Sequence record: OR525702.1
DNA from: Escherichia phage vB-Eco-KMB23
DNA length: 64,000 nucleotides
Reading direction: 5' to 3' (one strand)
Positions 8,579 to 61,772 of this stretch are shown one piece after another; within the stretch, counting starts at the first letter, position 1; every line of letters begins with the position of its first letter. The notes beneath the pieces are model-generated. The model was not told where the DNA came from. It worked only from the letters and a program-made list of their open reading frames with translations, and ran no database searches. A program made the translations under genes and the position numbers.

Positions 8579-8593
8579 TCTTTGACGATTTAA

Positions 8594-8609
8594 GGGACCT
8601 TCGGGTCCC
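8594..8609 (+). terminator. GC-rich hairpin with UUCG loop after gene 23
   Basis: GGGACC-ttcg-GGTCCC followed by T-run. Confidence 0.7.
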
Positions 8610-8626
8610 TTTAGTTGTTTTTATGG

Positions 8627-8634
8627 TATAAATA
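8627..8634 (+). promoter_or_regulatory. late promoter motif TATAAATA for gene 24
   Basis: Exact TATAAATA 28 bp upstream of ATG 8662. Confidence 0.65.
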
Positions 8635-8661
8635 AATCATATAAACCAAAAGGAAAGCGCA

Positions 8662-11558: not shown

Positions 11559-12977
11559 TTATGGATAGGTATAGATGATACCAGTTTCTAAAGCAGTTTT
11601 ATGAATGATGTATCCATTACGTGATTCTTGAACATCAACTTCTGGATAGTCTTTCATCATCTTCTGAAGGGTGTAACGATGCAGGTAGTATTTACTATCT
11701 GGATCTTCAGTTTTCCAATCTTTACCTTCTTCGGTCATTTTTTGGATTTCATCCATAACCCACCAACCGCACCAGATATAAGCCGAAGTACGATGTGGAA
11801 GAGGATGAACATAAGGCAATTCACCTTCTGGTTCTGGAGCAACTTTATCAGTTACCTGAACTTGACCTTCTGCTGTGATAGTTTTGCTATCATAATCAGT
11901 AGCAGTAACAGTTGCAGTAACTTCAATAGTTTGACTTCCAATAGATGATGTATCAACAGTGTATACATTAGTTGACCCTTCTACTGGAGAAGAATCTTTC
12001 TTCCATGAATATTCGATTTGTGCTTCTTCTGGAGCATCCGTAACATTAGCAGTAAATGTAGCCGAAGCATCTTGCTGAACGTTAATAGAAGGAGGAGTCA
12101 ATGTAACCTGTGGATTCATTGTCTTCTTATTAACTGTTAATGATACTTCATTAGAAGTAACTGTTTTTGCGTCATAATCTGTTGCTGTTACTTGCGCTAC
12201 GCATTTAATTCTTTTTACTCCACTTGTAGTTGGAGTATAGCTAAATGTAGCAGAAGTCGCTTCACCAATTTGAGAATCATCTACATACCACTGATACGTA
12301 GCAGATGCCCCATCAGGTTGAGAAGCTAAGGCAGCGGTAAATTCAACGGCTGTTCCAATCACTCCAGCTGGAGGACTATCAGGAGTTACTGCCAAGGTAG
12401 TCGTCTGCGTCTTTTTATTAACAGTCAATGATACTTCATTAGAAGTAACGCTTAGTGCATCATAATCTGCCGCAGTTACTTGAGCTACACACTTGATTTT
12501 TTTAACTCCGCTTGTGTCAGGAGTGTAATTGAATGTAGCGTCAGTTGCTTCGTCTACAGGAGAACCGTCAACGTGCCATTGATACGTAGCGTTTGCACCT
12601 GATGGCTGTGAAGCTAAGGCAGCGGTAAATTGAACGGCTGTTCCGATTACTCCTTCCGGAGGACTAGCAGGAGTTACGGCTAATGTAGTTGTCTGTGTCT
12701 TATTTTGAACCGTGATAGTTGTCGTAGTTTCTGCTGTTTCAGGTTCAGATTCTGCAACTTGATTGGTTGCAACTACTTTAATAGTCTTTTGACCGGCAGG
12801 TCCTTTTAGTACATAACTAAAAGTTGCTGACGTTTCTTCCTGTGGAGCGTCGTCTACAGTCCAAGCATATGTAATAGGTCCATCTCCAGTTTGACCACTG
12901 GGTGTAGCAGTAAACTGCTGAGTCTGATCTATAACTCCAGTAGGTGTTTTAGGAGTTATATCAACTGTAAAAGCCAT
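11559..12977 (-). CDS. hoc: outer capsid decoration protein Hoc, five-domain variant
   Basis: 472 aa; termini match T4 Hoc (376 aa) from memory; contains two adjacent, roughly 80 percent identical 96-aa Ig-like domains. Confidence 0.85.
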   Translation of the reverse strand: MAFTVDITPKTPTGVIDQTQQFTATPSGQTGDGPITYAWTVDDAPQEETSATFSYVLKGPAGQKTIKVVATNQVAESEPETAETTTTITVQNKTQTTTLAVTPASPPEGVIGTAVQFTAALASQPSGANATYQWHVDGSPVDEATDATFNYTPDTSGVKKIKCVAQVTAADYDALSVTSNEVSLTVNKKTQTTTLAVTPDSPPAGVIGTAVEFTAALASQPDGASATYQWYVDDSQIGEATSATFSYTPTTSGVKRIKCVAQVTATDYDAKTVTSNEVSLTVNKKTMNPQVTLTPPSINVQQDASATFTANVTDAPEEAQIEYSWKKDSSPVEGSTNVYTVDTSSIGSQTIEVTATVTATDYDSKTITAEGQVQVTDKVAPEPEGELPYVHPLPHRTSAYIWCGWWVMDEIQKMTEEGKDWKTEDPDSKYYLHRYTLQKMMKDYPEVDVQESRNGYIIHKTALETGIIYTYP

Positions 12978-12986
12978 AAGTTATCC

Positions 12987-13667
12987 TTATTTTAATGTTA
13001 CGAAAGAAGAATTACGTGTTTCACGAATTAGAACTGATCCGTCGCGATTAATGTAATAAATTAAGCTAAATAAAGTTTGGTGTGCTGACGCATGCTCAAA
13101 ACTAGTTGGGTGAGATTTCCAATCCGGAGTTTCAGCAATCCACTGGTAAATCCACCAAGGAACAGTGCAGAATCCTGGATTTTTTCCAATCAGCTGAAGA
13201 TTCGGACTAAAGTTTTCCGGAAGAGTAAATACAGACGGCTTCTCAGATTCAATAATCTCAGCTACAGCCTGTTCGAATTTTTCTTCAACAAAAGGAGTAT
13301 CTTCAATCAAAACATCGGTATTTTCAGGAATTTTATCCGTTTCTACTACTTCAATTTTAATGTCAGATTTAACCGGAGAATCAATCAGAAGTGCTGCCTC
13401 TGGATTGACTTCTTCATCGTCATATTTTAATCCGTCTGCAGCATCAGCAGCATCAATTAAGTCTTTAATAGATAACCCATCAGTCTCTGGCATAGGTTCA
13501 CTAGCGAGCTTCTGGAGGGCTTCTTCAATATCATTAACGATATTATCAAAAGATTTATTCTTTTTGACTTTTATACCAAACTGTTCAGCATATTCAGCTA
13601 ATTTAGCTTTAGCTTCTTTATTATCATCAAGAGCCTTCAGCTCTGCAATATAATCTTTATCTATCAT
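12987..13667 (-). CDS. inh: inhibitor of prohead protease
   Basis: 226 aa, position and length as T4 Inh; SD GAGGA. Confidence 0.8.
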   Translation of the reverse strand: MIDKDYIAELKALDDNKEAKAKLAEYAEQFGIKVKKNKSFDNIVNDIEEALQKLASEPMPETDGLSIKDLIDAADAADGLKYDDEEVNPEAALLIDSPVKSDIKIEVVETDKIPENTDVLIEDTPFVEEKFEQAVAEIIESEKPSVFTLPENFSPNLQLIGKNPGFCTVPWWIYQWIAETPDWKSHPTSFEHASAHQTLFSLIYYINRDGSVLIRETRNSSFVTLK

Positions 13668-13680
13668 AATATTTCCTCAG

Positions 13681-13688
13681 TATAAATA
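13681..13688 (+). promoter_or_regulatory. late promoter motif TATAAATA for uvsW
   Basis: Exact TATAAATA 30 bp upstream of ATG 13718. Confidence 0.65.
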
Positions 13689-13717
13689 TAGATATATTTA
13701 TTACATGGTATTTAGAC

Positions 13718-15229
13718 ATGACTGACATTAAAGTACATTTTTATGATTTTAGTCACGTGAGAATTGATTGTGAAGAAAGTACATTTCATGAACTCCGTGA
13801 TTTCTTTAGCTTTGAAGCTGATGGGTATCGTTTTAATCCGAAGTACAAATATGGCCACTGGGATGGACGAATTCGTCTTTTAGATTATAATCGCCTTCTT
13901 CCATTCGGCTTAGTCGGGCAAATTAAAAAGTTCTGTGATAACTTTGGCTATAAAGCCTGGATTGACCCACAAATTAACGAAAAAGAAGAATTATCAAGAA
14001 AAGATTTTGATGAATGGCTTTCTAAATTAGAAATCTATTCAGGAAATAAAAGAATTGAACCGCACTGGTATCAAAAAGATGCAGTGTTCGAAGGATTAGT
14101 TAATCGTCGTAGAATTCTTAATCTTCCAACATCCGCTGGTAAATCGTTAATTCAAGCTTTGCTTGCGCGATATTATTTGGAAAATTATGAAGGTAAAATT
14201 CTTATCATTGTTCCAACAACTGCCTTAACAACTCAGATGGCTGATGACTTTGTTGACTATCGTTTATTCAGTCATGCAATGATAAAGAAAATTGGTGGCG
14301 GAGCATCAAAAGATGATAAATATAAAAATGATGCACCGGTCGTTGTTGGTACATGGCAAACTGTAGTAAAACAACCAAAAGAATGGTTCTCACAGTTTGG
14401 AATGATGATGAATGATGAATGCCATCTTGCTACAGGAAAAAGTATTTCATCTATCATATCTGGTTTAAATAACTGCATGTTCAAATTCGGTTTGTCCGGT
14501 TCATTACGTGATGGCAAAGCTAATATCATGCAGTATGTTGGAATGTTTGGTGAAATATTTAAGCCAGTAACGACTTCTAAGTTAATGGAAGATGGACAAG
14601 TAACTGAGCTAAAAATTAATAGTATTTTTCTTCGCTATCCCGATGAGTTCACTACTAAATTAAAGGGAAAAACTTATCAAGAAGAAATAAAAATTATTAC
14701 GGGGCTTAGTAAAAGAAATAAATGGATCGCTAAATTGGCTATTAAGCTTGCACAAAAAGATGAAAACGCTTTTGTCATGTTTAAACATGTATCACATGGT
14801 AAAGCTATTTTCGATTTAATTAAAAATGAATACGATAAAGTTTATTACGTATCAGGGGAAGTTGATACCGAAACCCGCAATATAATGAAAACCTTAGCTG
14901 AAAACGGTAAAGGAATAATTATAGTCGCTAGTTATGGTGTATTTTCTACTGGTATTTCAGTTAAAAATCTGCATCACGTTGTTTTAGCGCACGGTGTTAA
15001 ATCAAAAATCATTGTATTACAAACAATCGGTCGTGTATTACGTAAGCACGGTTCTAAGACAATAGCAACCGTCTGGGACCTCATCGATGATTGTGGTGTT
15101 AAGCCAAAATCTGCTAATACGAAAAAGAAATACGTTCATTTGAACTATCTTTTAAAACATGGCATTGATCGTATTCAGCGCTACGCAGATGAAAAATTTA
15201 ATTACGTAATGAAAACAGTTAATTTATAA
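13718..15229 (+). CDS. uvsW: UvsW RNA-DNA/DNA-DNA helicase
   Basis: 503 aa; SF2 helicase motifs (PTSAGKS Walker A, DECH box). Confidence 0.9.
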   Translation: MTDIKVHFYDFSHVRIDCEESTFHELRDFFSFEADGYRFNPKYKYGHWDGRIRLLDYNRLLPFGLVGQIKKFCDNFGYKAWIDPQINEKEELSRKDFDEWLSKLEIYSGNKRIEPHWYQKDAVFEGLVNRRRILNLPTSAGKSLIQALLARYYLENYEGKILIIVPTTALTTQMADDFVDYRLFSHAMIKKIGGGASKDDKYKNDAPVVVGTWQTVVKQPKEWFSQFGMMMNDECHLATGKSISSIISGLNNCMFKFGLSGSLRDGKANIMQYVGMFGEIFKPVTTSKLMEDGQVTELKINSIFLRYPDEFTTKLKGKTYQEEIKIITGLSKRNKWIAKLAIKLAQKDENAFVMFKHVSHGKAIFDLIKNEYDKVYYVSGEVDTETRNIMKTLAENGKGIIIVASYGVFSTGISVKNLHHVVLAHGVKSKIIVLQTIGRVLRKHGSKTIATVWDLIDDCGVKPKSANTKKKYVHLNYLLKHGIDRIQRYADEKFNYVMKTVNL

Positions 15230-24081: not shown

Positions 24082-24135
24082 TCCTCATGTTATGTCAGTA
24101 AGACTACTATAACACAACACGAGGGACTTGTAAAC
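24082..24135 (-). promoter_or_regulatory. early sigma70-type promoter cassette, copy A (identical to 39407..39460)
   Basis: Minus strand reads GTTTAC, 17 nt, TTATAGT with upstream TG, then SD GAGGA and ATG of the 96-aa ORF. Confidence 0.6.
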
Positions 24136-26192
24136 TACATTTTGAACTTTTTAGACATTCCGTTGATGTTAACCAAAGAAGCTAAGATTTGAGAAACTTC
24201 GTTTTCCTCTTCTTTTGATTCTTCTACAAGGAATTGATTAAATCCAGTCATTGGACGAACTTCACCAGTTTCCATTAAATGGTCGCCATCATATACTGAT
24301 TCTTCTAATTGTTCAGAAGGAGGAACGATTGTGCCTTCGATTAAATACTTGTTATAAGCAGTTTCTTTCATCATGTACGTGCTCACTTTATTAATCTTCA
24401 GCAAAATTCCACGCGGTAAAATAACTTCAGCTTCTGATGGAAATCCTGATAAATGACCTGGAACGATAACTTTGATTCGCTCAGCCCCTTTAATTACCAT
24501 ACCTACGCTAGTTTCAGCATCTTCATTAGCATATGCGGAATGACTACCCATATGCATTAAATCTTCAGCATCAACTGAACCTTCTCCTTCACCAGAAAAT
24601 ACTGCACTGGAATCATCTAAAGCCATATAGTTTTTACCATACTCACCGAAGATATTTGGTTTAAGCGATGTTGATACGAAGTTCTTGAAATAGAACATTT
24701 TATTTTCAATATTATGGCGTAAAGTTTTAAAAGTAACTTCTTGTCCACGATAAAGCGTAGTTCCTGGAGGAAGAACTGATCCTTTGGCGAATGCAGAATC
24801 CAGCGTCTCGATGTGTTTAATAGCTCGTTCCATGTATTCTTCACGAGTAGAATCTGGTTTACCCAAGAGGAACGAGTTCATTTCAACATATGAATCTGCA
24901 CAATAATCTTCAATTACATCGGACTCAGCCTGAGTTAATCCTTTTGGGGGTACTTCAGTACTTGCATATTCATACGCTTGAGAAGCAGACTCATTAATCA
25001 ATTTATAAATGCCATTCATGACAAATTGAATAATAGCTACCTTTTCATCTGGCGTGGCTTTAGAACCTTTAACTAAATCATTGACAATTTTCTTAATAAC
25101 ATCAAAGCTATTAGAAATATTAATGTCAGCAAGATCGCTCAAAATTTTATCGGTTTTATAATCAAAGAATTCTTTATTCTTTAAATATTCCTGAGAACCT
25201 TGATATGTTATATCGCTCTGTAATTTAATAGATGGATCACGTAAACGCGCATGGGCCAATGCAATATGATTTCGGAAGCTTTCTAGTTCATAATCGTTAG
25301 ATTTAAAACGAGAAGCACTCCTCATACCACCGATAGCTCCTTTGCTGAAGTTTGAACCAATCTGAATAACGCCAGAGTTCATTGGTCCTTCTGCTTTATA
25401 TACCGGAACTTTAGATTCAAACTCTTGATATTTCTTAGCGGCGAAGCTATCACCCTGAAGTGAAGCATCAACAGTAGAATATTGAGCTTGTGCTGCTAAT
25501 CGACGACTAATTTTAGTTTTCTGAATAACAGCTTGATCCGTGCGCTTATCATTTTCTAAAGCAATAGAAGCAGCAACAGCAACAGCTTTAGGAACAGCAT
25601 TACCTGTTTTAACATCTACATAAACATCACCAACCTTTGATTCAACTTTTGTGAATAACTCAGTTGAAATAGGAGGTACACCTGGAATGTCTTCTAAATT
25701 GGCATTTTTACGGTAAACCATAATATATGCATACTTTTTATCATAATCCCAGATTTCCTTTAAAAGAACATATCGACCTGCTCCTTTAGTACGTACTAAA
25801 CGGTCAGCAATAACTTGCATTTGACGAGCAGCGCCATTTGTTTTACTTTTTAGTACGCGGAATAGGCATGCGTCAATTTTATACTGTTTCATTGTTTGAA
25901 GAGCAGTATCAAAAACCGCATTAATGACACCAATTGGATTTCCACCCAAGTTTTTAAGTTTAACTAATGATAGTTTCTCATTAACACCTATCATTACGAT
26001 ATGCATCATTTTATCGCCTGGCTTAACGTTTTTATTTGTATCACCGCCAGAGGTGTATGTACAAAATCTAAATCCAGGAAGCACGCTTTCTTCACCAGCT
26101 TGAATAGCAAAAATTTGAGGTATTTTATGCTTAGGATTTAAGTTAACAACCGGCGCCGAAGCGCCGTCAAATAATTCTGTAATAAGTTCCAT
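24135..26192 (-). CDS. Alt-family ADP-ribosyltransferase paralog
   Basis: 685 aa; N-terminus MELITELFD shared with Alt; C-terminal YRG, VSTS and EAEVILPRG motifs (R-S-E ART signature). Confidence 0.8.
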   Translation of the reverse strand: MELITELFDGASAPVVNLNPKHKIPQIFAIQAGEESVLPGFRFCTYTSGGDTNKNVKPGDKMMHIVMIGVNEKLSLVKLKNLGGNPIGVINAVFDTALQTMKQYKIDACLFRVLKSKTNGAARQMQVIADRLVRTKGAGRYVLLKEIWDYDKKYAYIMVYRKNANLEDIPGVPPISTELFTKVESKVGDVYVDVKTGNAVPKAVAVAASIALENDKRTDQAVIQKTKISRRLAAQAQYSTVDASLQGDSFAAKKYQEFESKVPVYKAEGPMNSGVIQIGSNFSKGAIGGMRSASRFKSNDYELESFRNHIALAHARLRDPSIKLQSDITYQGSQEYLKNKEFFDYKTDKILSDLADINISNSFDVIKKIVNDLVKGSKATPDEKVAIIQFVMNGIYKLINESASQAYEYASTEVPPKGLTQAESDVIEDYCADSYVEMNSFLLGKPDSTREEYMERAIKHIETLDSAFAKGSVLPPGTTLYRGQEVTFKTLRHNIENKMFYFKNFVSTSLKPNIFGEYGKNYMALDDSSAVFSGEGEGSVDAEDLMHMGSHSAYANEDAETSVGMVIKGAERIKVIVPGHLSGFPSEAEVILPRGILLKINKVSTYMMKETAYNKYLIEGTIVPPSEQLEESVYDGDHLMETGEVRPMTGFNQFLVEESKEEENEVSQILASLVNINGMSKKFKM

Positions 26193-26195
26193 GAT

Positions 26196-28289
26196 TTATC
26201 CTTGAACGAACTTGTAAGGCATGTTTGTAATATCTATGCAAGACGCAATAATTCCAAGAGATGATTCTACTTTTTGTTTAACATTTGATGAAACAAATGA
26301 TGCAAAATCAACTCTGTCTTCTATTTCAATATCACCTGTCATTGCAACTACTTCACCAGTTTCCATTAGACGATCACCGTCATAAATTACTGATTCGGTG
26401 AGTTCTTCCGTAGTCATAACTTCAGCTTGAATGAGTTTTGTATTATTAGATGTTGTTCCGTCATTATTAGAAGCATCAGTTATTTTATTAACTTTGACCA
26501 TCAATCCGCGTGGTAGAATAACTTCAGCTTCTGTTGCTATTCCGAGACTTCCTGGATATACAACATTAACTTTATGAGCTCCATCAATTGCCCATCCTAT
26601 TTGAACTTTAACGTATTCAGGATTTTCTTTATACGCTCTTATTTCGTTTGGATTAATAGTTATTCCTTCTTCATTTTTATCAACTGTCAATTCATTACGA
26701 GCTTCTGGTTCTAAAAGACCAATACCAGCATGTGTAATTCCAAAACGTCCAAAAATGATAGGAGTTAAAGAAGTAGATACAAAATTTCTGAAATAGAATA
26801 CTTTATTTTTAACTAGTGCTTCGTATATAGGAGCAGTCATACTTTGAGCACGATAAACTGTAATGCCTTCTGGTATACGGTCACCATTTTCAAAAGCTGA
26901 ATCTAAGTTATTTATAGCAGATTCAATTTCTTTTTCACTCATTACATCATATCGTTCTGGATTGTAGCGTCCTAAAAGAAGATTATTGATGTCAGTATAT
27001 CCTGAACCACAATACTCTCTAATACCACGCTTTTGTGATGGAGTATATTTAGAACCATCACGAGCAATAGTAATATCAATCATTGGACCTGCACCAATTC
27101 CAGAAAAGCTATAAATCATTCGTTTGAGGAATTTAGTTTTTGCTGCGTTCCAGGAATTTTTAGTTATTTCTTCCCAGACTTCATCTGACTGCCCTTTACG
27201 AGTTTTATTATGTTTATCAAGCCAATTATCTTTATATTCTTCAAAGAATTGATTAACAGCTGCTGCGTATTTCTCTAAACATTTTATTGAAGTAGTTGGT
27301 TCATTTTTAATCGCATTAAGAATTACATCTTTAATTTTTTCAGAAACTTCATTAACCTCACTTTTTGAAAAGAATTTATAGTCATAATGAAGTTCATCTG
27401 CAGTTCCTTCAGCAATAATTTTTGCTGCTTTAGTTTTAGAAGCCAATGAATTAATTCCAAGTTTCATTTCTTCTGCTTCGGGAATTAAAGGAGCGGTAGC
27501 AGGTTTATTGAAATTAGCTGCGGTAGATTCATACTTCTGGAATAATTCACTTTCAAATCTAGAAGATTCTAATGATTGACTTTGTGCAATTGCTCTACGG
27601 GAAATTTTAACTTTAACGATTACAGCTTGGTCAGAACGTTTATCATTTTCTTGCGCAATAGATGCAGCAATTGCCTCATTTTTAGTTACTTGAGCTCCAG
27701 TATCTTTATTGATATAAACATCACCGACCTTCGATTCAACTTTAGTAAAGAGCTCGGTACTAATTTCCGGAACTCCTGGAATGTCTTCTAGTGATACATT
27801 TTTGCGATGTATAAGAATATATGCATACTTTTTATCGTAATCCCAGAGTTCCTTAAGAAGGACGTATCTGCCACCTGAACGACTGCGGATAAGTCTATCA
27901 GCAATAAGTTGAATTTGACGAGCTTGACCAGCAGTTTTAGACTTAAGAATACGGAGCATACAGGCATCAATTTTATACTGACGCATCGTCTGCATCGCAA
28001 CAGTAAAAACTGAATTGATGTAATTAATTGGGCTTGGACCGAGACCTTTTAATTTAGCAATTGAACCTTTAGCAGTTAATGTAAAAGGAACAATATGCAT
28101 CATTTTATCGCCCATCTTTAAATCGCGATTAGTATCACCTCCAGATGTATAGGTACATAAACGAAAGCCTGGTTGTTCAATTGCGTCATCAACATGAACT
28201 GAAAAAATTTGTGGTATTTTCTTCTTTGGATTTAAGTTTGTAATCGGAAGAGTAGTATCTTCGTCAAATAATTCTGTAATGAGTTCCAT
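26196..28289 (-). CDS. alt: ADP-ribosyltransferase Alt
   Basis: About 697 aa; MELITELFDEDTTLPITNL matches T4 Alt; ART motifs present; second ATG chosen for SD spacing. Confidence 0.85.
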   Translation of the reverse strand: MELITELFDEDTTLPITNLNPKKKIPQIFSVHVDDAIEQPGFRLCTYTSGGDTNRDLKMGDKMMHIVPFTLTAKGSIAKLKGLGPSPINYINSVFTVAMQTMRQYKIDACMLRILKSKTAGQARQIQLIADRLIRSRSGGRYVLLKELWDYDKKYAYILIHRKNVSLEDIPGVPEISTELFTKVESKVGDVYINKDTGAQVTKNEAIAASIAQENDKRSDQAVIVKVKISRRAIAQSQSLESSRFESELFQKYESTAANFNKPATAPLIPEAEEMKLGINSLASKTKAAKIIAEGTADELHYDYKFFSKSEVNEVSEKIKDVILNAIKNEPTTSIKCLEKYAAAVNQFFEEYKDNWLDKHNKTRKGQSDEVWEEITKNSWNAAKTKFLKRMIYSFSGIGAGPMIDITIARDGSKYTPSQKRGIREYCGSGYTDINNLLLGRYNPERYDVMSEKEIESAINNLDSAFENGDRIPEGITVYRAQSMTAPIYEALVKNKVFYFRNFVSTSLTPIIFGRFGITHAGIGLLEPEARNELTVDKNEEGITINPNEIRAYKENPEYVKVQIGWAIDGAHKVNVVYPGSLGIATEAEVILPRGLMVKVNKITDASNNDGTTSNNTKLIQAEVMTTEELTESVIYDGDRLMETGEVVAMTGDIEIEDRVDFASFVSSNVKQKVESSLGIIASCIDITNMPYKFVQG

Positions 28290-28312
28290 CATATCCTCTC
28301 TAGTGTTTATTC

Positions 28313-36634: not shown

Positions 36635-38031
<1,397 letters not shown>

Positions 38032-39463: not shown

Positions 39464-41051
<1,588 letters not shown>

Positions 41052-41059
41052 AATAAAAT

Positions 41060-41073
41060 GGGCCTTGCGGCCC
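41060..41073 (-). terminator. hairpin between nrdB and denA
   Basis: GGGCC-ttgc-GGCCC. Confidence 0.5.
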
Positions 41074-41078
41074 ACTCC

Positions 41079-42248
41079 TTAAAAGTATTTTTTAAAACTC
41101 ATCATAACTTTATCATCAACATCATTATCAATCTGTGCAACAAGGTAAGATGACAGTTCTACTTCTTGTGGCGCGGATTGAACATTATCAGAATTAAGAT
41201 ATTCACGAATCCAAGGATATGGATGTTTAACCGGAGCATCGGTAATTGGGCATGGAAGACCACACTGCTTCATACGAGATACAGTTAAGTAATCAATAAA
41301 GCTCCACATGCTATTTGTATTTAATCCAGGAACATCGCCATCTTTAAATAAATGAACTGCCCAATCTTTTTCTTGGCGGTTAACTTCCATGAAAATATCA
41401 ACTGCTTCTTGTTCACACTCTTGAGCAATTTTAACCCATTCATCGCCATCAGTACCGGATTGAAGCTGACGAATAATATATTGGGTGCCTTTAAGGTGAA
41501 GCTGCTCATCACGTGCAATGAACTTCATAATCTTGGCATTACCTTCCATGATTTCCATATTCTTATGGAAGTTAAAGGTACATGCGAAAGATACATAAAA
41601 ACGAATAGCTTCTAAGGCATTAATAACGTGCAAACAGAGGTAAAGAGATTTCATTAAAGCACGTTTAGTACATGCAACAACTTTGCCTAACTCTTCTTTA
41701 CGAAATCCTTCTGATAAAATTCCTTCATATTCTTCTTTAGCATTTTCCCATTCACGGGTTTTAGTCAGAACATCATCATAATAACGTCCAATTGATTCAG
41801 CACGTTTCATAATAGCTTCATCTAATACAATCTCATCAAATACCTTTGACGGATCAGTATAAAGATTTCGCATAATATGAGTATATGAACGACTATGAAT
41901 AGTTTCACTAAAAGTCCATGTAGCAACCCATGTATCAAGACTTGGGTCTGAAATTAATGACATAAGTACAGCAGATGGCGCACGACCCTGAATGCTATCC
42001 AAAAGTGATTGATACTTCAGGTTATTAGTAAAAATATTTTGCTGATACTGAGGAAGCTTATTAAATTGTGCAGCATCCATCATTAAGTTTACTTCTTCAG
42101 GACGCCAGAAAAATGATAATTGCTTTTCGGTTAAATCTTCAAAAACTTTATGGCGTTGAATATCATAACGCGCAATACCAAGACCTGAACCAAAAAACAT
42201 AGGTTCTTTTAAAACATCAACTGGATTTGTATTAAAAACTGTGCTCAT
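41079..42248 (-). CDS. nrdB: ribonucleotide reductase small subunit, uninterrupted
   Basis: 389-aa continuous ORF; no intron. Confidence 0.9.
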   Translation of the reverse strand: MSTVFNTNPVDVLKEPMFFGSGLGIARYDIQRHKVFEDLTEKQLSFFWRPEEVNLMMDAAQFNKLPQYQQNIFTNNLKYQSLLDSIQGRAPSAVLMSLISDPSLDTWVATWTFSETIHSRSYTHIMRNLYTDPSKVFDEIVLDEAIMKRAESIGRYYDDVLTKTREWENAKEEYEGILSEGFRKEELGKVVACTKRALMKSLYLCLHVINALEAIRFYVSFACTFNFHKNMEIMEGNAKIMKFIARDEQLHLKGTQYIIRQLQSGTDGDEWVKIAQECEQEAVDIFMEVNRQEKDWAVHLFKDGDVPGLNTNSMWSFIDYLTVSRMKQCGLPCPITDAPVKHPYPWIREYLNSDNVQSAPQEVELSSYLVAQIDNDVDDKVMMSFKKYF

Positions 42249-42299
42249 AAATTTTCCACTTAGTTAATAGATAGTGACTCGTCCATGAGTCAAATTATA

Positions 42300-44564
42300 T
42301 CATAATTTACAGGATGAACAATCTTCAGCTTTTGGAGTTTCTATTTCATAATCATCAGTACCAGAACCATCGCGGGTATTATGATAATAGAAATTTTTTC
42401 CGCCAAAATACCAGAAATACAAAAGGTCATCAATCATTATTGACATTGGAACCTTTCCTTTTGGAAAAATCTGCGGGTCATAGTATGTATTCGCTGAAGC
42501 TGATTGACATACCCATTTCAGCATAATAGCTACTTGCGTAAGATAAGGTTTATTACCTTTCTTAGCTAATTTCCACGTATAATCATAGAGGTCTATGTTA
42601 TGCTCAATATTGGGCACGACTTGATTAAAGGAGCCCTCTTTTGATTCTTTAACAGAGACTGGTCCACGTGGAGGCTCGATACCGTTTGTACTGTTAGAAA
42701 CTTGGGAAGATGACTCACATGGCATAAGTGCTGATAATGTGCTATTACGGATGCCAAAGAGCTTAAGGTCTTCCCGCAGCGACGACCAGTCACAAACGTA
42801 TTTTGGAGCTGCGATTTGGTCAATCTTTTTATTGTACCAGTCGATAGGTAATTCGCCTCGAGACCAACGAGTGTCTGAATAATATTCGCAAGGTCCTTTT
42901 TCTTTGGCGAGCTTAATGGATGCTTTAATGAGTCCATACTGTAATCTCTCAAATAGTTCATGTGTTAAATCGTTAGCATCTTCATAAGAAGCAAAGTTAC
43001 TTGCCAGCCAAGCTGCATAGTTAGTAACACCTACACCAAGGTTACGACGCTTTTTAGCTTTTTCTGCTTCAGGAACTGGATATCCTTGGTAATCCAAAAG
43101 ATTATCAAGAGCGCGAACTTGAACTTCTGCCAATTCATTAATTTTATCTTGGTCTTGCCAGTCAAAATTATCTAGTACGAATGCAGAGAGAGTACACAAT
43201 CCAATTTCCGCATCAGGACTATTCACATCATTTGTTGGAATAGCAATTTCACAGCACAAGTTACTTTGACGAATAGGTGCCTTTTCACGAATAAACGGAG
43301 TATAGTTATTCGTATTATCAATGAACTGCACATAAATCCTTGCTGTTCCTGAACGTTCAGTCATGAGCAATTCAAATAGTTCACGAGCTTTAATACGCTT
43401 TTTACGAATATTAGGGTCTTTTTCTGCTGCTTCGTATAATTCACGGAAACGGTCTTGGTCTTTAAAATAAGAATAATAAAGCTCGCCACCCATTTCATGC
43501 GGACTGAACAAAGTAATGTAATCGTTCTTTCCGAATCGTTCCATCATCAAATCATTCAGTTGAACACCATAATCCATATGACGAATGCGGTTTTCTTCTA
43601 CGCCTTTGTTATTTTTCAAAACGAGAAGATTTTCAACTTCCAAATGCCAAATAGGATAATAAGCAGTAGCAGCGCCGCCACGAATTCCACCCTGTGAACA
43701 TGATTTAACTGCAGTCTGAAAATGTTTCCAAAAAGGAATAACACCAGTATGGCGTACTTCACCCATGCCAATCTTAGAACCTTCAGCACGAATCATACCA
43801 ACGTTAATACCAATTCCAGCGCGTTTAGAGATATATTCAACAATTGAAGCGGAAGCCTTATTGATAGACTTCAATGAATCTCCTGCCTCAATAACAACAC
43901 ATGAACTAAACTGTCGAGTCGGAGTACGGCAACCAGCCATAATAGGAGTTGGCAGTGAAATCTGTCGGGTTGATACCGCTTCATAAAAACGGATAACATG
44001 TTTTAATCTATCAACAGGTTCATCTTGATGCAATGCCATTCCAATAGCCATAAATGCAAACTGCGGAGTTTCATAAATTTGACCAGTGGTTTTATCTTTA
44101 ACTAGATATTTTTCTTTTAATTGCATCGCCCCGGAATAAGTAAATTCCATATCCCGTTCGTGCTTAATTTTTGATTCTAAAAATGTAATTTCTTCTGCTG
44201 AATATTTTGACAATAATTCAGGGTCATATTTCCCTTCATTTACGCAATAAGAAATATGGTCAATAAATGAACGCGGTTCATACTGCCCGTAAACATGCTT
44301 ACGAAGAGCAAACATTAAACAGCGTGCAGCTACATATTGATAATCAGGCTCTTCAACCGAAATAGAATTCGCAGCAGCCTTAATGACAATAGTCTGAATA
44401 TCATCAGTTGTCATTCCATCACGGAGATAAGATTTAATATTTTCATATAATTCATAAGGATCTACTGATGTTCCTTCAGCTGCCCAAGATAAAACTTTAA
44501 TAATTTTTTGTGGGTCGAAGCTCTGAGAAACACCACTACTTTTGATAACATTAATTAATTGCAT
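42300..44564 (-). CDS. nrdA: ribonucleotide reductase large subunit
   Basis: 754 aa, ATP-cone N-terminus. Confidence 0.9.
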   Translation of the reverse strand: MQLINVIKSSGVSQSFDPQKIIKVLSWAAEGTSVDPYELYENIKSYLRDGMTTDDIQTIVIKAAANSISVEEPDYQYVAARCLMFALRKHVYGQYEPRSFIDHISYCVNEGKYDPELLSKYSAEEITFLESKIKHERDMEFTYSGAMQLKEKYLVKDKTTGQIYETPQFAFMAIGMALHQDEPVDRLKHVIRFYEAVSTRQISLPTPIMAGCRTPTRQFSSCVVIEAGDSLKSINKASASIVEYISKRAGIGINVGMIRAEGSKIGMGEVRHTGVIPFWKHFQTAVKSCSQGGIRGGAATAYYPIWHLEVENLLVLKNNKGVEENRIRHMDYGVQLNDLMMERFGKNDYITLFSPHEMGGELYYSYFKDQDRFRELYEAAEKDPNIRKKRIKARELFELLMTERSGTARIYVQFIDNTNNYTPFIREKAPIRQSNLCCEIAIPTNDVNSPDAEIGLCTLSAFVLDNFDWQDQDKINELAEVQVRALDNLLDYQGYPVPEAEKAKKRRNLGVGVTNYAAWLASNFASYEDANDLTHELFERLQYGLIKASIKLAKEKGPCEYYSDTRWSRGELPIDWYNKKIDQIAAPKYVCDWSSLREDLKLFGIRNSTLSALMPCESSSQVSNSTNGIEPPRGPVSVKESKEGSFNQVVPNIEHNIDLYDYTWKLAKKGNKPYLTQVAIMLKWVCQSASANTYYDPQIFPKGKVPMSIMIDDLLYFWYFGGKNFYYHNTRDGSGTDDYEIETPKAEDCSSCKL

Positions 44565-44881
44565 AAGTCCTCAACTTGAAAATCGTCTTTAAACAATCGG
44601 TTAACTATATGAGCTATTATATCACCATGACACGGCTTTGGTTTACATGTGCATCCTAGCCTCATTCCACGTAAAGGCTCTAAATGTGCTTTAGTTATTT
44701 CTCCGGATTTAATTCGACGTATAAAATCTTTTTTGAATAATTCAATGGCAGCCTCCCGGCTGCCAGCATCTTTACCGACGTAATTTCCCCAAAATGTACC
44801 GCGGTGAATATTAACATCAAAGTCGGATTTGTATTTATTCACTACCCGGCATAGACGGCCCACGCTGGAATAATTCGTCAT
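44555..44881 (-). CDS. small Cys/His-motif protein (nrdA.1 position)
   Basis: 108 aa; [19 protein letters not shown] motif. Confidence 0.6.
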
Positions 44882-45098
44882 ATTGTTTTTCCGTTAATAC
44901 AGTAATATCATAGTAACAATCGGAAGAAGTTTTAACTGTGGAAATTTTATTATCAAAATACTCACGAGTCATTTTATGAGTATAGTATTTTTTACCATAA
45001 ATGGTAATAGGCTGTTCTGGTCCTGGAACTTCTAACTCGCTTGGGTTAGGAAGTGTAAAAAGAACAACGCCAGAAGTATCTTTAAATCGTAAAATCAT
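44835..45098 (-). CDS. hypothetical protein (nrdA.2 position)
   Basis: 87-aa ORF. Confidence 0.55.
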
Positions 45099-45955
45099 AT
45101 TGCCATTTTCCCTTTAATTGCTGGATGCGATTCATAATTTTCAAGGATAAAATCTTTCGGTTTCATGTATTCAGTTAACCAGTAAAGCTGTGTTTCGGTG
45201 TCACAATTTCCAAACTCTATAGGCCAATCAATTTTAAGTTCACACAGTTCTTTAGGCTCACGACGTAAAATTTCTTTACATTGCGCAGTATGATTCATAT
45301 AGATGTGAGTATTACCACCAGAAAATATCAAATCTCCTGGGATAAGATTACACATCTTAGCCACAATATGCGTCAAGGCAGCGTACGAGGCAATGTTGAA
45401 TGGCAAGCCCAAGAAAACATCTACACTTCTTTGGTACCATTGTAAATCAAGATAACCATTACGCACATTAAACTGATAGAACATATGACAGGGCGGTAAT
45501 GCCATTTGATTGATTTCAGCTGGATTCCATGCTGAAACGATTTGACGTCGATCAGTTGGTAATTTTTTAATACGATCAATAGTTTCAACTAATTGATCCA
45601 CACCACCGAAATCACGCCATTGTTTACCATATATAGGACCAAGTTCACCACTATGATATCCTAGGTCTTTAGCTTGGTTTTCATAATTGTCATCCCAGAT
45701 AGTTTTACCTTGAATAAGACTACCGTGAGTAAGAAGACGTAAATCATTAACATTGGTAGAACCGGAAATAAACCATAAAAGCTCAGCAATGCATGCATTC
45801 CAGGCGAGCTTCTTAGTTGTTACTGCAGGAAAACCTTTAGTTAAATCCCAGCGTAATTTAGTACCGAACAGAGCAATTGTTCCTATGCCTGTTCGGTCAT
45901 CGGTTTCATAGCCATTTTCAAAAATGTCTTTAATTAAATCTTGGTATTGTTTCAT
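45095..45955 (-). CDS. td: thymidylate synthase, uninterrupted
   Basis: 286-aa continuous ORF; no intron. Confidence 0.9.
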
Positions 45956-46000
45956 TTAGTACCTTATATAAATTATAATACATTTTATGAAGCTGAATAA

Positions 46001-46348
46001 TCAATACGGTTTAGCATCAAATTTTCTTTCAATTTCAGGCGTGAAATATAATTCTTTACCGCGTTTGGAAAAGCGACCAATAATATGATAATTATTCTCA
46101 TCAAACGTGATATTACCAATATCCATAGCTTTCAACCAAATATCGATATTTCTATCCAGCTTTATGTCAAAATTCCAATACGGAGAACTATTACCGAAAA
46201 TACTGCAAGCGGATTCAGTAAAACAACTACTATAAATCTTATCTTTAGGAACTACTAATTGATAGACACCTTTAATAAACTGAGGACCCTGCCACTTTGG
46301 CTGTTTCGCGTCTTTTTCTAATAGAATAGGGTAATAATTAAAATTCAT
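46001..46348 (-). CDS. hypothetical protein encoded between frd and td
   Basis: 115-aa ORF with ATG start; late-promoter-like TATATAAATG about 25 bp upstream. Confidence 0.6.
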   Translation of the reverse strand: MNFNYYPILLEKDAKQPKWQGPQFIKGVYQLVVPKDKIYSSCFTESACSIFGNSSPYWNFDIKLDRNIDIWLKAMDIGNITFDENNYHIIGRFSKRGKELYFTPEIERKFDAKPY

Positions 46349-46367
46349 ATTTTCCGCCAGTGTTATT

Positions 46368-47197
<830 letters not shown>

Positions 47198-47208: not shown

Positions 47209-47541
47209 TTAAAAAGGATCAGGAACATATCCGCTAGCTTTAATCATTTTAATTAACGTTAACATTCCTTTGTTAACTGCTCGTGAGATTTCATCAAAAA
47301 CTTCATCACTAAAAAGTTCTAACACACCCTTCTGAACTTTTAATTTACAGCCAACAATTTCGTCATCGCCTATAGTAAATTCATTACCACCAATTCCTCC
47401 GAAAAACTTAATTACACCAGTTAACTGTCTTCCACGAGAATATGGGTCGTGTGATAAAGTAATATGAGTCACCCCGGGTACAGTTTTAAATTGGCAGCGA
47501 ATATTTACTTGGGAAATTCCAGTTACATGAATATCAGACAT
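47209..47541 (-). CDS. hypothetical protein
   Basis: 110-aa ORF. Confidence 0.55.
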   Translation of the reverse strand: MSDIHVTGISQVNIRCQFKTVPGVTHITLSHDPYSRGRQLTGVIKFFGGIGGNEFTIGDDEIVGCKLKVQKGVLELFSDEVFDEISRAVNKGMLTLIKMIKASGYVPDPF

Positions 47542-47851: not shown

Positions 47852-48112
47852 TTATTTTTGAATTTTATCGAGCCACTTACCAAGCTTAATCATTTCTTTA
47901 GTAGCCTTTTCCATACTTCTGAACTTAACCAATAGAGGATAGGTATCGACACCCATAACTAAACTGGTTACAAGACTGTGTTCACCCACAAGCCATAACG
48001 AATACGTTTGAATATCGAGCCCGTAATTTCTGTCTTTGTGGACCCGTACACCCATCACTTCAAATTTCTCACTAGCTTTTTCTACCGCATTCAGGAAATC
48101 ATCTTTAGTCAT
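47852..48112 (-). CDS. hypothetical protein
   Basis: About 86 aa from ATG 48112; track ORF begins at TTG 48145. Confidence 0.45.
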   Translation of the reverse strand: MTKDDFLNAVEKASEKFEVMGVRVHKDRNYGLDIQTYSLWLVGEHSLVTSLVMGVDTYPLLVKFRSMEKATKEMIKLGKWLDKIQK

Positions 48113-48113
48113 A

Positions 48114-48494
48114 TTAGGCCTTAAAAGTTTTTCGCAAAAGTTCAATGATTTCGTCTACATTGTTTTCATCTACAATGCAGTGAATTTTTGTTACGCCAGA
48201 AACCTTGTCTTTGACTTCATCTTCTTCAGAAGTCGGTTCTTTATACTCACGAAAACAATGAAATTCGTCTTCGCAAATTTCTAAAAGTCTATCTTTGAGG
48301 TAAAAATGCTTTCCATTTGCGCATTCAATGTGTTTTACTGCTTTATATCCGTTAGCGACGGAAACTTCTTTAACTTCAAACCATCCGCCATTATCTCGAA
48401 TGGCTTTAACTATTGATGAATTAGAACGTGGGCTATAATTAATAAATGTATCAATAAGTCTTGGAACAAGTTCATACTTTTTACCGATATACAT
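48114..48494 (-). CDS. hypothetical protein
   Basis: 126-aa ORF, ATG with SD GAGGA. Confidence 0.6.
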   Translation of the reverse strand: MYIGKKYELVPRLIDTFINYSPRSNSSIVKAIRDNGGWFEVKEVSVANGYKAVKHIECANGKHFYLKDRLLEICEDEFHCFREYKEPTSEEDEVKDKVSGVTKIHCIVDENNVDEIIELLRKTFKA

Positions 48495-49819: not shown

Positions 49820-49890
49820 TTTTATTTCCTTTTTAATTTAATTAACAGTTGGTGCTATGACGATGTATGACCTCATAGCTGGTCAGTGAG
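49820..49890 (-). promoter_or_regulatory. gene 32 translational operator (unstructured A/U-rich region and upstream pseudoknot)
   Basis: Minus strand reads TTAAATTAAAAAGGAAATAAAAATG preceded by GCTATGAGGTCATACATCGTCATAGCACC, as recalled for the T4 operator. Confidence 0.7.
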
Positions 49891-49902
49891 ATAATTATAA
49901 TC

Positions 49903-49910
49903 TATTTATA
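49903..49910 (-). promoter_or_regulatory. late promoter motif TATAAATA for gene 32
   Basis: Reverse complement of tatttata. Confidence 0.5.
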
Positions 49911-49918
49911 ATAAGCAA

Positions 49919-57914: not shown

Positions 57915-60900
57915 ATGGCTACTTTAAAACAAATACAATTTAAAAGAAGCAAAACTGCAGGTCAACGTCCTGCTGCTTCAGTATTAGCCGAAGGTGAATT
58001 GGCTATAAACTTAAAAGATAGAACAATTTTTACTAAAGACGATTCAGGAAATATCATTGACTTAAGCATTACCGCTGGCGGTAATATCAGTGGTAATATC
58101 ACTCAAACTGGTGATTATACACAGACTGGAAAATTTAATTTAATTGGCCCGCAGATTATAGCAAGTGGTGGATATATTGAGTTTAATTATCGTACTACTG
58201 GAAGTGGGGCTTGGTCCGGTCAACACACTGCAAAGGCTCCAATTTTTGTAGATTTAAGCTCAGCTACTTCCACATCTGAATATAATCCTATAATTAAACA
58301 GCGCTTTAAAGATGGAACTTTTTCATTAGGTACTTTAGTTTCTGAAGGTTCGTTGAAGATTCATTATATTGATGAAACTGGTCAATCTAAATATTGGACA
58401 TTTGCGCGCTCAGGTAATTTTCAAGTTGATTCTGGTAATTTATTAGTATCTGGTGGGTATTTAGTCGCTCAGAGTAATATTGAAACAAGAACAGGTTCTT
58501 TGATTGGTCCATCTGTTGTAACTAAAAATATTTCATTTGATACGAAAGCGTTTGGACAATACGATTCGCAGTCATTAGTTCAATATGTTTATCCTGGAAC
58601 TGGTGAAACAAACGGAATTAATTACCTTCGTAAATTCCGTGCAAAATCTGGTGGTACGATTTATCATGAATTAGCTTCTGCACAAACCGGAAAAAGTGAT
58701 GAACTGTCTTGGTGGACCGGTAATACAGCCGTTAATAAACAAATGGGCCTTCGCAATGATGGGTCTTTAGTGTTGCGACGCTCACTCGCAATTGGTACAA
58801 TTACAACAGATGAAAACATTAATAATTACGGCTCCACTGGAGCAATGGGTGAATGCTATATAGTCATTGGAGATGCCGCAACTGGTGTATCATATAAAAG
58901 ATCTGGTGTATATGATTTAGTTGCTAATGGTCTTTCTATCGCGTCTATTACTCCTGACAGTTTCCGTAGTACTCGTAAAGCATTATTTGGACGTTCAGAA
59001 GACCAAGGCGGAACATGGATTATGCCTGGAACGAACGCTGCTTTTTTATCGGTTCAAACACAGGCTGATGAAAACTCTGCTGGAGATGGTCAAACCCACA
59101 TTGGATATAACTCTGGCGGTAAAATGAACCACTATTTCCGTGGTAAAGGAAAAACTAATATTAATACTCAAGAAGGCATGGAAGTTAACCCAGGTATTTT
59201 GAAATTGGTAACTGGCTCTAATAATGTAATGTTTTATGCTGATGGCGGTATTACATCTGTTAAGCAGCTTTCAATATATAACGGCATATATTTAGCAGCT
59301 AATAATTCTACTGCTGGGCTAACATTCGCTCCAACTACTACAATTGATGGCACTAAGCAAATTTTGTGGGAAGGCGGTACTCGTGCTGGTCAGAATAAAA
59401 GCTATGTAACTGTTAAAGCATGGGGTAATTCATTTAACGCATCTGGCGATCGTAATCGTGAAACGGTTTTTGAAGTAGCTGATGGACAAGGATATTATTT
59501 TTATTCACAGCGTGTGGCTCCAAGTGGCTCTGAAACTACTGGGCCTGTTGTAACCCAGTTCAATGGACAAGTTAATGCTAGAGGAAGTATTATTACTGAC
59601 GGAAGTTTTAAAGTTAATGGATTAAGCACTTTAGTCGGTAATGTTACCATGTCTAATGGTTTGTTTGTCCAAGGTGGTTCTTCTATTACTGGACAAGTAA
59701 AAATTGGTGGAACTGCTGATGCATTAAGAATTTGGAATGCCGAATACGGTGCTATTTTCCGTCGCTCAGAAACAGCATTACATATTATCCCGACTCCTAA
59801 AGATGCCGGTGAAAGTGGTGGAATAAGTAATCTCCGCCCACTTAGTATTAGTCTTAATAATGGTATGGTACAAATGCGCCATTCTGTTACGTTAGGCGAT
59901 GATGGCGCTGGCGGTAATATGATTACTGTGGACAACGATACCAAACTTGTTGTTGTTACTAGTAATAGTCGCATTTCTCCTAATTACCGTATGCAGGTAG
60001 GACAAGCAGCTTATATTGATGCTGAATGTACTGACACAGTTCGCCCGGCTGGTGCAGGGTCTTTTGCTTCACAAAATAATGAAAACGTTCGTGCTCCATT
60101 CTATATGAATATTAATCGTACAGATACAAGTACTTACGTTCCTATTTTGAAACAACGATATGTCCAAGGAAACAGTTGTTATTCTCTGGGAACTCTAATT
60201 AACGGCGGTAACTTCAGAGTTCATTATCATGAAGGCGGCGATGGCGGTTCGACTGGCGCTATTATAAAGGATTTAGGTTGGGAATTTAACAAAAATGGTG
60301 ATTTTATATCTCCTAAGCGTGTTTCTGCTGGGGGTTCAGTTTATTTAGGTACAGACGGCAATATTACAGGTGGTTCTGGCAATTTTGCTAATTTAAACAG
60401 TACAATTGAATCACTTAAAACCGATATTGTATCGAGTTACCCAATCGGTGCTCCTATTCCATGGCCAACGGATACTCCTCCTGACGGTTACGCTATTATG
60501 GAAGGTCAGACTTTTGATAAGTCTGCATACCCAAAATTGGCTATGGCTTACCCATCTGGCGTAATTCCAGATATGCGCGGGCAAACTATTAAAGGTAAAC
60601 CAAGTGGTCGAGCTGTATTAAGCGCAGAAGCCGATGGTGTTAAGGCTCATAGCCATAGTGCATCGGCTTCAAGTACTGACTTGGGTACTAAAACTACGTC
60701 GAGTTTTGATTATGGTACTAAGACGACAAGTAGCTTTGACTATGGCACTAAGACTAGCAATACCACAGGTAACCACTCTCATACTGTAAGCGGTACTACG
60801 AGTTCTGCTGGTGCACACCAACATGCGCGCTCAGGTCCTCAGTTACAAGCCGGCATACCCAATAACATATTCTATGACGGATATAATAGTGTAGGTGCAA

Positions 60901-61193
60901 ACGCCAACGCTAAAATCACCGGATCTGTGAGCGGTGCTACTGCAGGGTCGAATATAGCCAAAACTTCTTCAGACGGTGCTCATACTCATACTTGGTCTGG
61001 TACTACAAGCACTACAGGTAACCATGCTCACACAGTAGGTATCGGTGCTCATACCCATACTGTAGGTATCGGTGCTCATACCCACACGGTAGCAATTGGC
61101 TCGCATGGTCATACTATCACTGTAAATAGTACAGGTAATACAGAAAACACGGTTAAAAACATTGCTTTTAACTATATCGTTCGTTTAGCATAA
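57915..61193 (+). CDS. 37: long tail fibre distal subunit with receptor-binding tip
   Basis: 1092 aa; C-terminus ...[31 protein letters not shown] with HxH repeats as in T4 gp37. Confidence 0.9.
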
Positions 61194-61220: not shown

Positions 61221-61772
61221 ATGAAAATATATCATTATTATTTTGACACTAAAGAATTTTACAAAGAAGAAAATTACAAACCGGTTAAAGGACTCGGTCT
61301 TCCTGCTCATTCAACAATTAAAAAACCTTTAGAACCTAAAGAAGGATACGCAGTTGTATTTGATGAACGTACTCAAGATTGGATTTATGAAGAAGACCAT
61401 CGCGGCAAACGAGCATGGACTTTTAATAAAGAAGAAATTTTTATAAGTGACATTGGAAGCCCGGTTGGTATAACCTTTGATGAGCCCGGCGAATTTGATA
61501 TATGGACTGATGACGGTTGGAAAGAAGACGAAACATATAAACGCGTTTTAATTCGCAATAGAAAAATTGAAGAATTATACAAAGAATTCCAAGTTTTAAA
61601 TAATATGATTGAAGCTTCTGTCGCGAATAAAAAGGAAAAATTCTATTATAAAAACCTTAAGCGGTTCTTTGCTCTTTTAGAAAAGCATGAGCATTTAGGT
61701 GGTGAATTCCCTTCATGGCCTGAAAAAGAACGGAAACCTTGGTATAAGCGTTTATTCAAGCATTACGTATAA
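61221..61772 (+). CDS. 38: tail fibre assembly chaperone (T4-type gp38)
   Basis: 183 aa, matches T4 gp38. Confidence 0.9.
   Translation: MKIYHYYFDTKEFYKEENYKPVKGLGLPAHSTIKKPLEPKEGYAVVFDERTQDWIYEEDHRGKRAWTFNKEEIFISDIGSPVGITFDEPGEFDIWTDDGWKEDETYKRVLIRNRKIEELYKEFQVLNNMIEASVANKKEKFYYKNLKRFFALLEKHEHLGGEFPSWPEKERKPWYKRLFKHYV

Follow-up and report, generated by a model that had tools for sequence, protein, structure and literature searches.

The 64,000-nucleotide stretch of the genome of Escherichia phage vB-Eco-KMB23 analyzed here (sequence record OR525702.1; hereafter the window, numbered from its first letter) is very probably a segment, running from gene 17 to arn, of an ordinary Tequatrovirus, i.e., a T4/T2-like coliphage, with a T2-type nucleotide-metabolism block that is free of introns and endonuclease genes. 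Alignment revealed that the whole window is collinear and co-oriented with positions 98075 to 162425 of the T4 genome (NC_000866), which span gene 17 to arn, and that the block reads frd-td.1-td-nrdA.2-nrdA.1-nrdA-(51 bp)-nrdB-denA. The alignment is interrupted by clean gaps that coincide exactly with the six T4 intron and endonuclease positions, and all six homing-endonuclease genes found in this interval of T4, namely, those for I-TevI and I-TevIII together with mobE, segD, segE, and segG, are absent from the window. An initial annotation, made from the sequence alone, had described a T4-like genome devoid of the introns and freestanding endonucleases of T4 in this region, and the gaps lying exactly at these sites show that its core reading was right. 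It had also described the backbone as identical to that of T4, which is not so: the length-weighted nucleotide identity is 94.7% over 58.1 kb of aligned blocks, and comparison with the spliced T4 genes gave 79.3% identity at the nucleotide level and 84% at the amino acid (aa) level for td and 91.0% and 92.5%, respectively, for nrdB. The closest listed public matches are Tequatrovirus isolates with about 97% nucleotide identity (vB-Eco-KMB22, teqsoen, RB18, slur03/08/14, and the Shigella phages Sf24 and KRT47); none of the listed records is identical to the window across the 24 kb that were tested, the top listed match reaching 96.8%. The main use of the analysis is this correction, in that the genome is not that of a T4 clone but of a mosaic, T2-like Tequatrovirus.

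The T2 affinity of the block emerges from comparison with AY262132, the T2H locus sequence on which the published comparison of T2 with T4 relied. The window matches this record in one collinear high-scoring segment pair with 92.6% identity over 5.4 kb, the 51-bp spacer between nrdA and nrdB is identical in the two, and codon 42 of nrdB is AAG. Judged from its sequence, the block is the published T2-type, endonuclease-free arrangement. The 30 best-matching listed records cover the whole 4.9-kb block at about 97% nucleotide identity, and because 28 of them do so in a single collinear match, these share the layout without introns and endonuclease genes.

Within this block, the product of nrdB matches the Ribonuc_red_sm profile over residues 33 to 332 (E = 7e-38; 131 bits against a cutoff of 33.6), which places it among the class Ia β subunits. 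The T4 splice junctions were placed where splicing left the frame open, a U preceded the 5' splice site, and the intron ended in G. By these rules the T4 nrdB intron comprises 598 nt, starting with AAAATG after TTTTGCGT and ending with CATACG before GTACC. The window has a 598-nt gap relative to T4 exactly at this position, and its nrdB is continuous across the site, with flanks of TCTTTCGCAT and GTACCTTTAAC compared with TCTTTTGCGT and GTACCTTTAAC in T4, both changes being synonymous. Relative to T2H, nrdB is 90.3% identical at the nucleotide level, and the two products are 389 and 392 aa long. The T4 counterpart of the short spacer between nrdA and nrdB is 701 bp long and holds nrdB.1 and mobE. 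A scan of positions 41000 to 46500 for promoter and terminator consensus sequences gave counts no different from those in shuffled sequences; a weak hairpin that it flagged in the spacer (42275 to 42292) has a poor T-tail and allows no interpretation.

The thymidylate synthase gene td presents the same picture. Its product spans the complete Thymidylat_synt profile (positions 1 to 266 of 266; E = 9e-95; 317 bits), identifying it as a thymidylate synthase. In T4, the gene is interrupted by a 1,017-nt intron that follows CTTGGGT, extends from TAATTGAGG to ACATAATG, and precedes CTACCG; in the window exactly this intron is absent, and the frame is continuous across the insertion site. The initial annotation had given nrdB and td as continuous ORFs (open reading frames) of 389 and 286 aa, and both are upheld by the ORF list, the Pfam matches, and the T4 alignment. 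The same is true of its estimate of about 50 bp between nrdB and nrdA with no mobE: the T4 alignment shows that the entire 701-bp block of nrdB.1 and mobE is gone.

Exact in-frame junctions at the intron sites are also what precise loss leaves behind, and the exon-2 part of nrdB is 97.8% identical to T4, as might be expected had a T4-like ancestor bearing the introns and endonuclease genes recently undergone their clean deletion. We consider such a history very unlikely, because recent loss should leave T4-like flanks, while the spacer between nrdA and nrdB is 100% T2-type and td.1, which does not occur in T4, is present. The flanks of the empty sites are in fact among the sequences most divergent from T4, with identities of 85.9% for the exon-1 part of nrdB and 84.9% and 69.5% for exons 1 and 2 of td. 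The same history needs six independent precise deletions. A second alternative, that the introns and endonuclease genes are real but were dropped or collapsed during assembly or editing, draws on a 127-nt tandem duplication in gene 18 (described below), which indicates that the assembly is not error-free. This alternative is effectively excluded, because hundreds of independent genomes share the same contiguous junctions, as does the T2H record AY262132 of this locus; moreover, assemblers do not excise unique segments of 0.6 to 1 kb at exact splice junctions while leaving the frames intact.

The recurrence of the empty sites was gauged in a collection of 50,697 phage records. An uninterrupted td, defined as a match in one place to at least 80% of the gene, is present in 791 records, and the T4 td intron occurs in 197, which split at nucleotide 548. 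A 160-nt probe spanning the nrdB intron site is contiguous in 1,223 of the 1,527 records that it matches, the nrdB intron being found in 118. The corresponding 160-nt probe for the nrdA-nrdB junction matches 789 records and is contiguous in 594 of them, while any match to mobE or nrdB.1 was found in 143 records and a full-length match in 20. From these counts we infer that the empty sites are the majority state in Tequatrovirus rather than a distinguishing feature or a special loss and that T4 is the exceptional, heavily colonized genome. T4 was already called the outlier in a 2010 review (PMC2988022); that T-even phages differ in which of the td and nrdB introns, seg genes, and mob genes they carry has been documented since studies of 1987 to 1989 that the review cites (Pedersen-Lane and Belfort; Quirk et al.). 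The feature is real, already known, and ordinary. Taken by itself it matters little. The exclusion of T2 markers by T4 is classically explained by the variability of these elements.

The sites occupied by seg genes in T4 are likewise empty. The genes inh (12987 to 13667, minus strand) and uvsW (13718 to 15229, plus strand) lie 50 bp apart. The initial annotation had noted that inh abuts uvsW without an intervening segD; the adjacency stands, but the gene was misnamed, since it is segE that T4 has between the two (T4 annotation; PMC2988022, Table 1). The segD and segG sites lie elsewhere in the window, between genes 23 and 24 and between genes 59 and 32, respectively. The uvsW ORF itself is 503 aa long in the window versus the 587 aa annotated in NC_000866, a record that flags sequence discrepancies in this very region. 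We take the corrected T4 sequence to split the region into UvsW (503 aa) and UvsW.1, a form with which the window agrees.

Searches for introns or endonucleases hidden in the window were negative. We compared 12 T4 proteins (segA/C/D/E/F/G, mobB/C/E, and I-TevI/II/III; mobA and mobD were not among them) by phmmer with the --max option against the 861 stop-to-stop segments (30 aa or longer) from the six frames of the window and recovered no seg, mob, or I-Tev homologue, nothing scoring better than E = 0.02; the positive control, denA, recovered its orthologue at 1e-95. No GIY-YIG endonuclease related to Seg, I-TevI, or I-TevII was found in the window by this search, the best match (E = 0.021) being to rnh and hence noise, and neither was an HNH endonuclease related to MobB, MobC, MobE, or I-TevIII (best E = 0.021). 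In a blastn comparison (word size of 7) of the window with T4 DNA, covering the introns of td, nrdB, and nrdD and the mobE, segD, segE, and segG regions, only short intergenic flanks matched. A T4-type group I intron is accordingly lacking from td and nrdB, in which the gaps of 1,017 and 598 nt are exact and no intron DNA is matched by blastn in the window. A scan of the window at the Rfam gathering thresholds gave no hits; this negative is uninformative, because the T4 region with the td and nrdB introns, run as a control, likewise gave none, presumably since ORF-containing introns break the model.

The stretches of the window that do not align with T4 consist of a second full-length Alt paralogue, divergent tail-fiber sequence, and five small ORFs, all five of which match PHROG families with no function assigned to them. 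Checks of the ORFs lacking in T4 against Pfam and PHROG revealed no endonuclease family, the four small ORFs without a Pfam match having been checked to E ≤ 10. One of them, the ORF between pseT and pseT.1, was entertained as an endonuclease remnant on account of a weak segC match (E = 0.066) and rejected: it has no GIY-YIG motif, its PHROG family carries no assigned function, and its Pfam matches at E ≤ 10 are coiled-coil-type noise. The coordinates of these ORFs and of the other features are given in Table 1.

Table 1. Genes, empty insertion sites, and small ORFs of the window from Escherichia phage vB-Eco-KMB23
Feature	Positions	Strand	Remarks
Gene 23/gene 24 spacer, empty segD site	8579-8661	.	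83 bp; T4 segD at 106561-107232
inh/uvsW divergent spacer, empty segE site	13668-13717	.	50 bp; T4 segE at 112057-112674
Small ORF between pseT and pseT.1	37729-38031	-	PHROG 2364, function not assigned
nrdB, class Ia ribonucleotide reductase small subunit	41079-42248	-	Single ORF, 389 aa; Pfam PF00268 Ribonuc_red_sm
Empty nrdB intron insertion site	41581-41582	-	Last exon-1 base 41582, first exon-2 base 41581
nrdB nt 100-165, homologue of MobE nicking region (FFWRPEE block)	42084-42149	-	Site per PMC2790892
nrdA-nrdB spacer, empty mobE/nrdB.1 site	42249-42299	-	51 bp; read directly
nrdA, ribonucleotide reductase large subunit	42300-44564	-	754 aa; Pfam ATP-cone, Ribonuc_red_lgN, Ribonuc_red_lgC
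nrdA.1 (DUF4326)	44555-44881	-	108 aa; PF14216, E = 5.5e-22; collinear with T4 and T2H nrdA.1
nrdA.2 (DUF5496)	44835-45098	-	87 aa; PF17600, E = 2e-63; collinear with T4 and T2H nrdA.2
td, thymidylate synthase	45095-45955	-	Uninterrupted ORF, 286 aa; PF00303
38-bp I-TevI homing-site homologue (-27 to +11)	45396-45433	-	Empty td intron site between 45407 and 45406
td.1, between frd and td	46001-46348	-	115 aa; PHROG 1928; no Pfam match at E ≤ 10; not endonuclease-like
Small ORF between frd and frd.1	46952-47197	-	PHROG 3183
Small ORF between frd and frd.1	47209-47541	-	PHROG 3566, Pfam DUF7247
Small ORF between frd.1 and frd.2	47852-48145	-	PHROG 4423
Gene 59/gene 32 spacer, empty segG site	49820-49918	.	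99 bp; T4 segG at 147909-148541

Several points weigh against reading this phage as an ordinary, T2-like Tequatrovirus with empty sites. The visible part of the genome amounts to 64 kb, and endonuclease genes may sit elsewhere, e.g., at the segA/B/C/F, mobA-D, or nrdD-intron sites. Each empty site may be ancestral, or it may go back to an old precise loss. The gene 18 duplication, as noted above, counts against the quality of the assembly. Finally, any susceptibility of this phage to homing is deduced from the similarity of target sites, and the td site differs from that of T4 at 10 of 38 positions.

That susceptibility bears on whether the phage would serve as a recipient of T4 elements. The T4 endonucleases cut endonuclease-less genomes, and the ensuing repair copies the element together with flanking markers, the phenomenon known as marker exclusion (PMC2988022, PMC2790892); T2, which is without mobE and the nrdB intron, gains both from T4 in this way (PMC2790892). 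Our comparison of targets covered those of MobE, I-TevIII, and I-TevI. MobE-dependent nicks map to nucleotides 122 to 126 of T2 nrdB, and codon 42, which lies beside the conserved FFWRPEE block, is AAG in all mobE-less phages (PMC2790892). The homologous nucleotides 100 to 165 of the window nrdB show two synonymous differences from T2H and many differences from T4. There are thus good grounds to infer that the phage would be as susceptible to MobE as T2 is, because the nick region is two synonymous changes away from that of T2 and AAG is kept at codon 42. As for I-TevIII, the RB3 enzyme cuts a T4 delta-intron nrdB substrate at -14/-16 (PMC1865063). Positions -45 to -6 upstream of the insertion site in the window nrdB are identical to those of T4, changes being present only at -5 and -2, and this nrdB is probably an I-TevIII substrate.

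The third target, that of I-TevI in td, is a 38-bp site that is cut at -23/-25 and has a 20-bp primary binding region centered on the insertion site (PMC2988022). The window reads CAAAGAAGTGTAGATGTTTTCTTGGGC before and TTGCCATTCAA after the insertion site, compared with CAACGCTCAGTAGATGTTTTCTTGGGT and CTACCGTTTAA in T4. The mismatches to T4 include 5 of the 20 positions of the primary binding region, and the site of T2H, a known recipient, has 6 mismatches over the 38 bp. Moreover, the last exon-1 base is C in the window, whereas the G.U pair of the 5' splice site needs a U, as in T4, and splicing after homing into this td would require co-conversion of that C. I-TevI has a CNNNG cleavage motif, in which C-27 and G-23 are the important bases, and both are retained in the window. 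Cleavage of the window td by I-TevI appears plausible but uncertain, the case for it being that the enzyme is described as sequence tolerant (1993 work, as cited in PMC2988022).

The td gene of the window is as distant from T2H td (79.4% nucleotide and 85% aa identity) as it is from that of T4, and it is matched with 100% identity by its counterpart in Shigella phage KRT47 (MN781580). It is best described as a third allele, different from both the T4 and the T2 allele, and as such illustrates the mosaicism around genes targeted by nucleases. The divergence is strongest in the 3' 140 nt of the gene, and the neighboring genes are 94 to 97% identical. An alternative view of this allele is that the intronless td persists by escaping I-TevI cleavage, such that the phage would be an immune rather than a naive recipient. 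The mismatches in the homing site, the C at the end of exon 1, and the contrast between a td 79% identical to both T4 and T2 and its far better conserved neighbors could all be read in this way. We nevertheless regard this view as unlikely: the CNNNG bases are kept, all the changes amount to synonymous-type drift in an allele that is diverged in general, the splice-site base would be exchanged through co-conversion, and the reported tolerance of the enzyme again speaks against it. A wider extension of the idea, which we likewise hold to be improbable, is that the diverged td could be naturally refractory to I-TevI and help explain why introns remain absent from roughly three-quarters to four-fifths of the td genes in Tequatrovirus despite efficient homing. 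The allele is nonetheless a mildly useful lead, since it may serve to test how much target divergence I-TevI tolerates.

Returning to a phage with naive, T2-like empty sites, one would expect coinfection with T4 or RB3 to result in cutting at the MobE and I-TevIII targets in nrdB and possibly at the I-TevI site in td, after which gene-conversion repair would copy in the element along with flanking T4 markers, i.e., marker exclusion. It is plausible that the phage would act as a recipient of T4 elements in a mixed infection, as the initial annotation had proposed, and this would restate the classical T2 × T4 marker exclusion.

Other parts of the window also depart from T4. In gene 18, an essential gene that encodes the tail sheath, two copies of a 127-nt segment (1629 to 1755 and 1756 to 1882) lie in tandem and are 99% identical. 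The gene is frameshifted into ORFs at 462 to 1823 and 1978 to 2568 (453 and 196 aa), compared with the single 659-aa product in T4. The 10 best listed of 498 matching records lack the duplication, since the interval is 264 bp long in each of them and 391 bp long in the window. An overlap of 127 nt is what an assembler run at k = 127 leaves on a circular or permuted contig, and because the length of the duplication equals this overlap, it looks artifactual, probably an untrimmed circular-contig end. The hoc gene (11559 to 12977, minus strand) encodes 472 aa versus 376 aa in T4, being longer because of a 288-nt (96-aa) tandem repeat (12121 to 12408 and 12409 to 12696; copies 78% identical), which apparently amounts to one extra immunoglobulin-like domain on this head-decoration protein. 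At 24135 to 28292 on the minus strand, two full-length Alt-like ADP-ribosyltransferase paralogues of 685 and 698 aa occur in tandem; T4 has one alt along with the degenerate alt.-1, alt.-2, and alt.-3, and two Alt genes are likewise annotated in relatives. The distal tail-fiber gene 37 (57915 to 61193, plus strand) encodes 1,092 aa versus 1,026 aa in T4, with a C-terminal half that is 75 to 79% identical and contains unaligned stretches, and is followed by gene 38 (61221 to 61772, plus strand); this divergence is the usual host-range hypervariable region.

In relation to the known systems, the window shares its core genes with T4, and their order and orientation agree. T4 has in addition the td intron with I-TevI, the nrdB intron with an I-TevIII remnant, nrdB.1, and mobE and, elsewhere in the interval, segD, segE, and segG, whereas the window has in addition td.1 and four further small ORFs. 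In some relatives, such as FriedrichMiescher and JoYop, an endonuclease gene adjoins nrdA. The closest system is that of T2, as represented by the genomes PV958097 and MH751506. T2H (AY262132) has the same order, frd-td.1-td-nrdA.2-nrdA.1-nrdA-51 bp-nrdB, with an intronless td (861 nt) and nrdB and no mobE; besides the 100% identical nrdA-nrdB spacer, Td.1 is 100% identical at the aa level and nrdA is 97.1% identical at the nucleotide and 99.3% at the aa level. The T2 genome PV958097, finally, is 100% identical to the window over 160 nt spanning the nrdA-nrdB junction.

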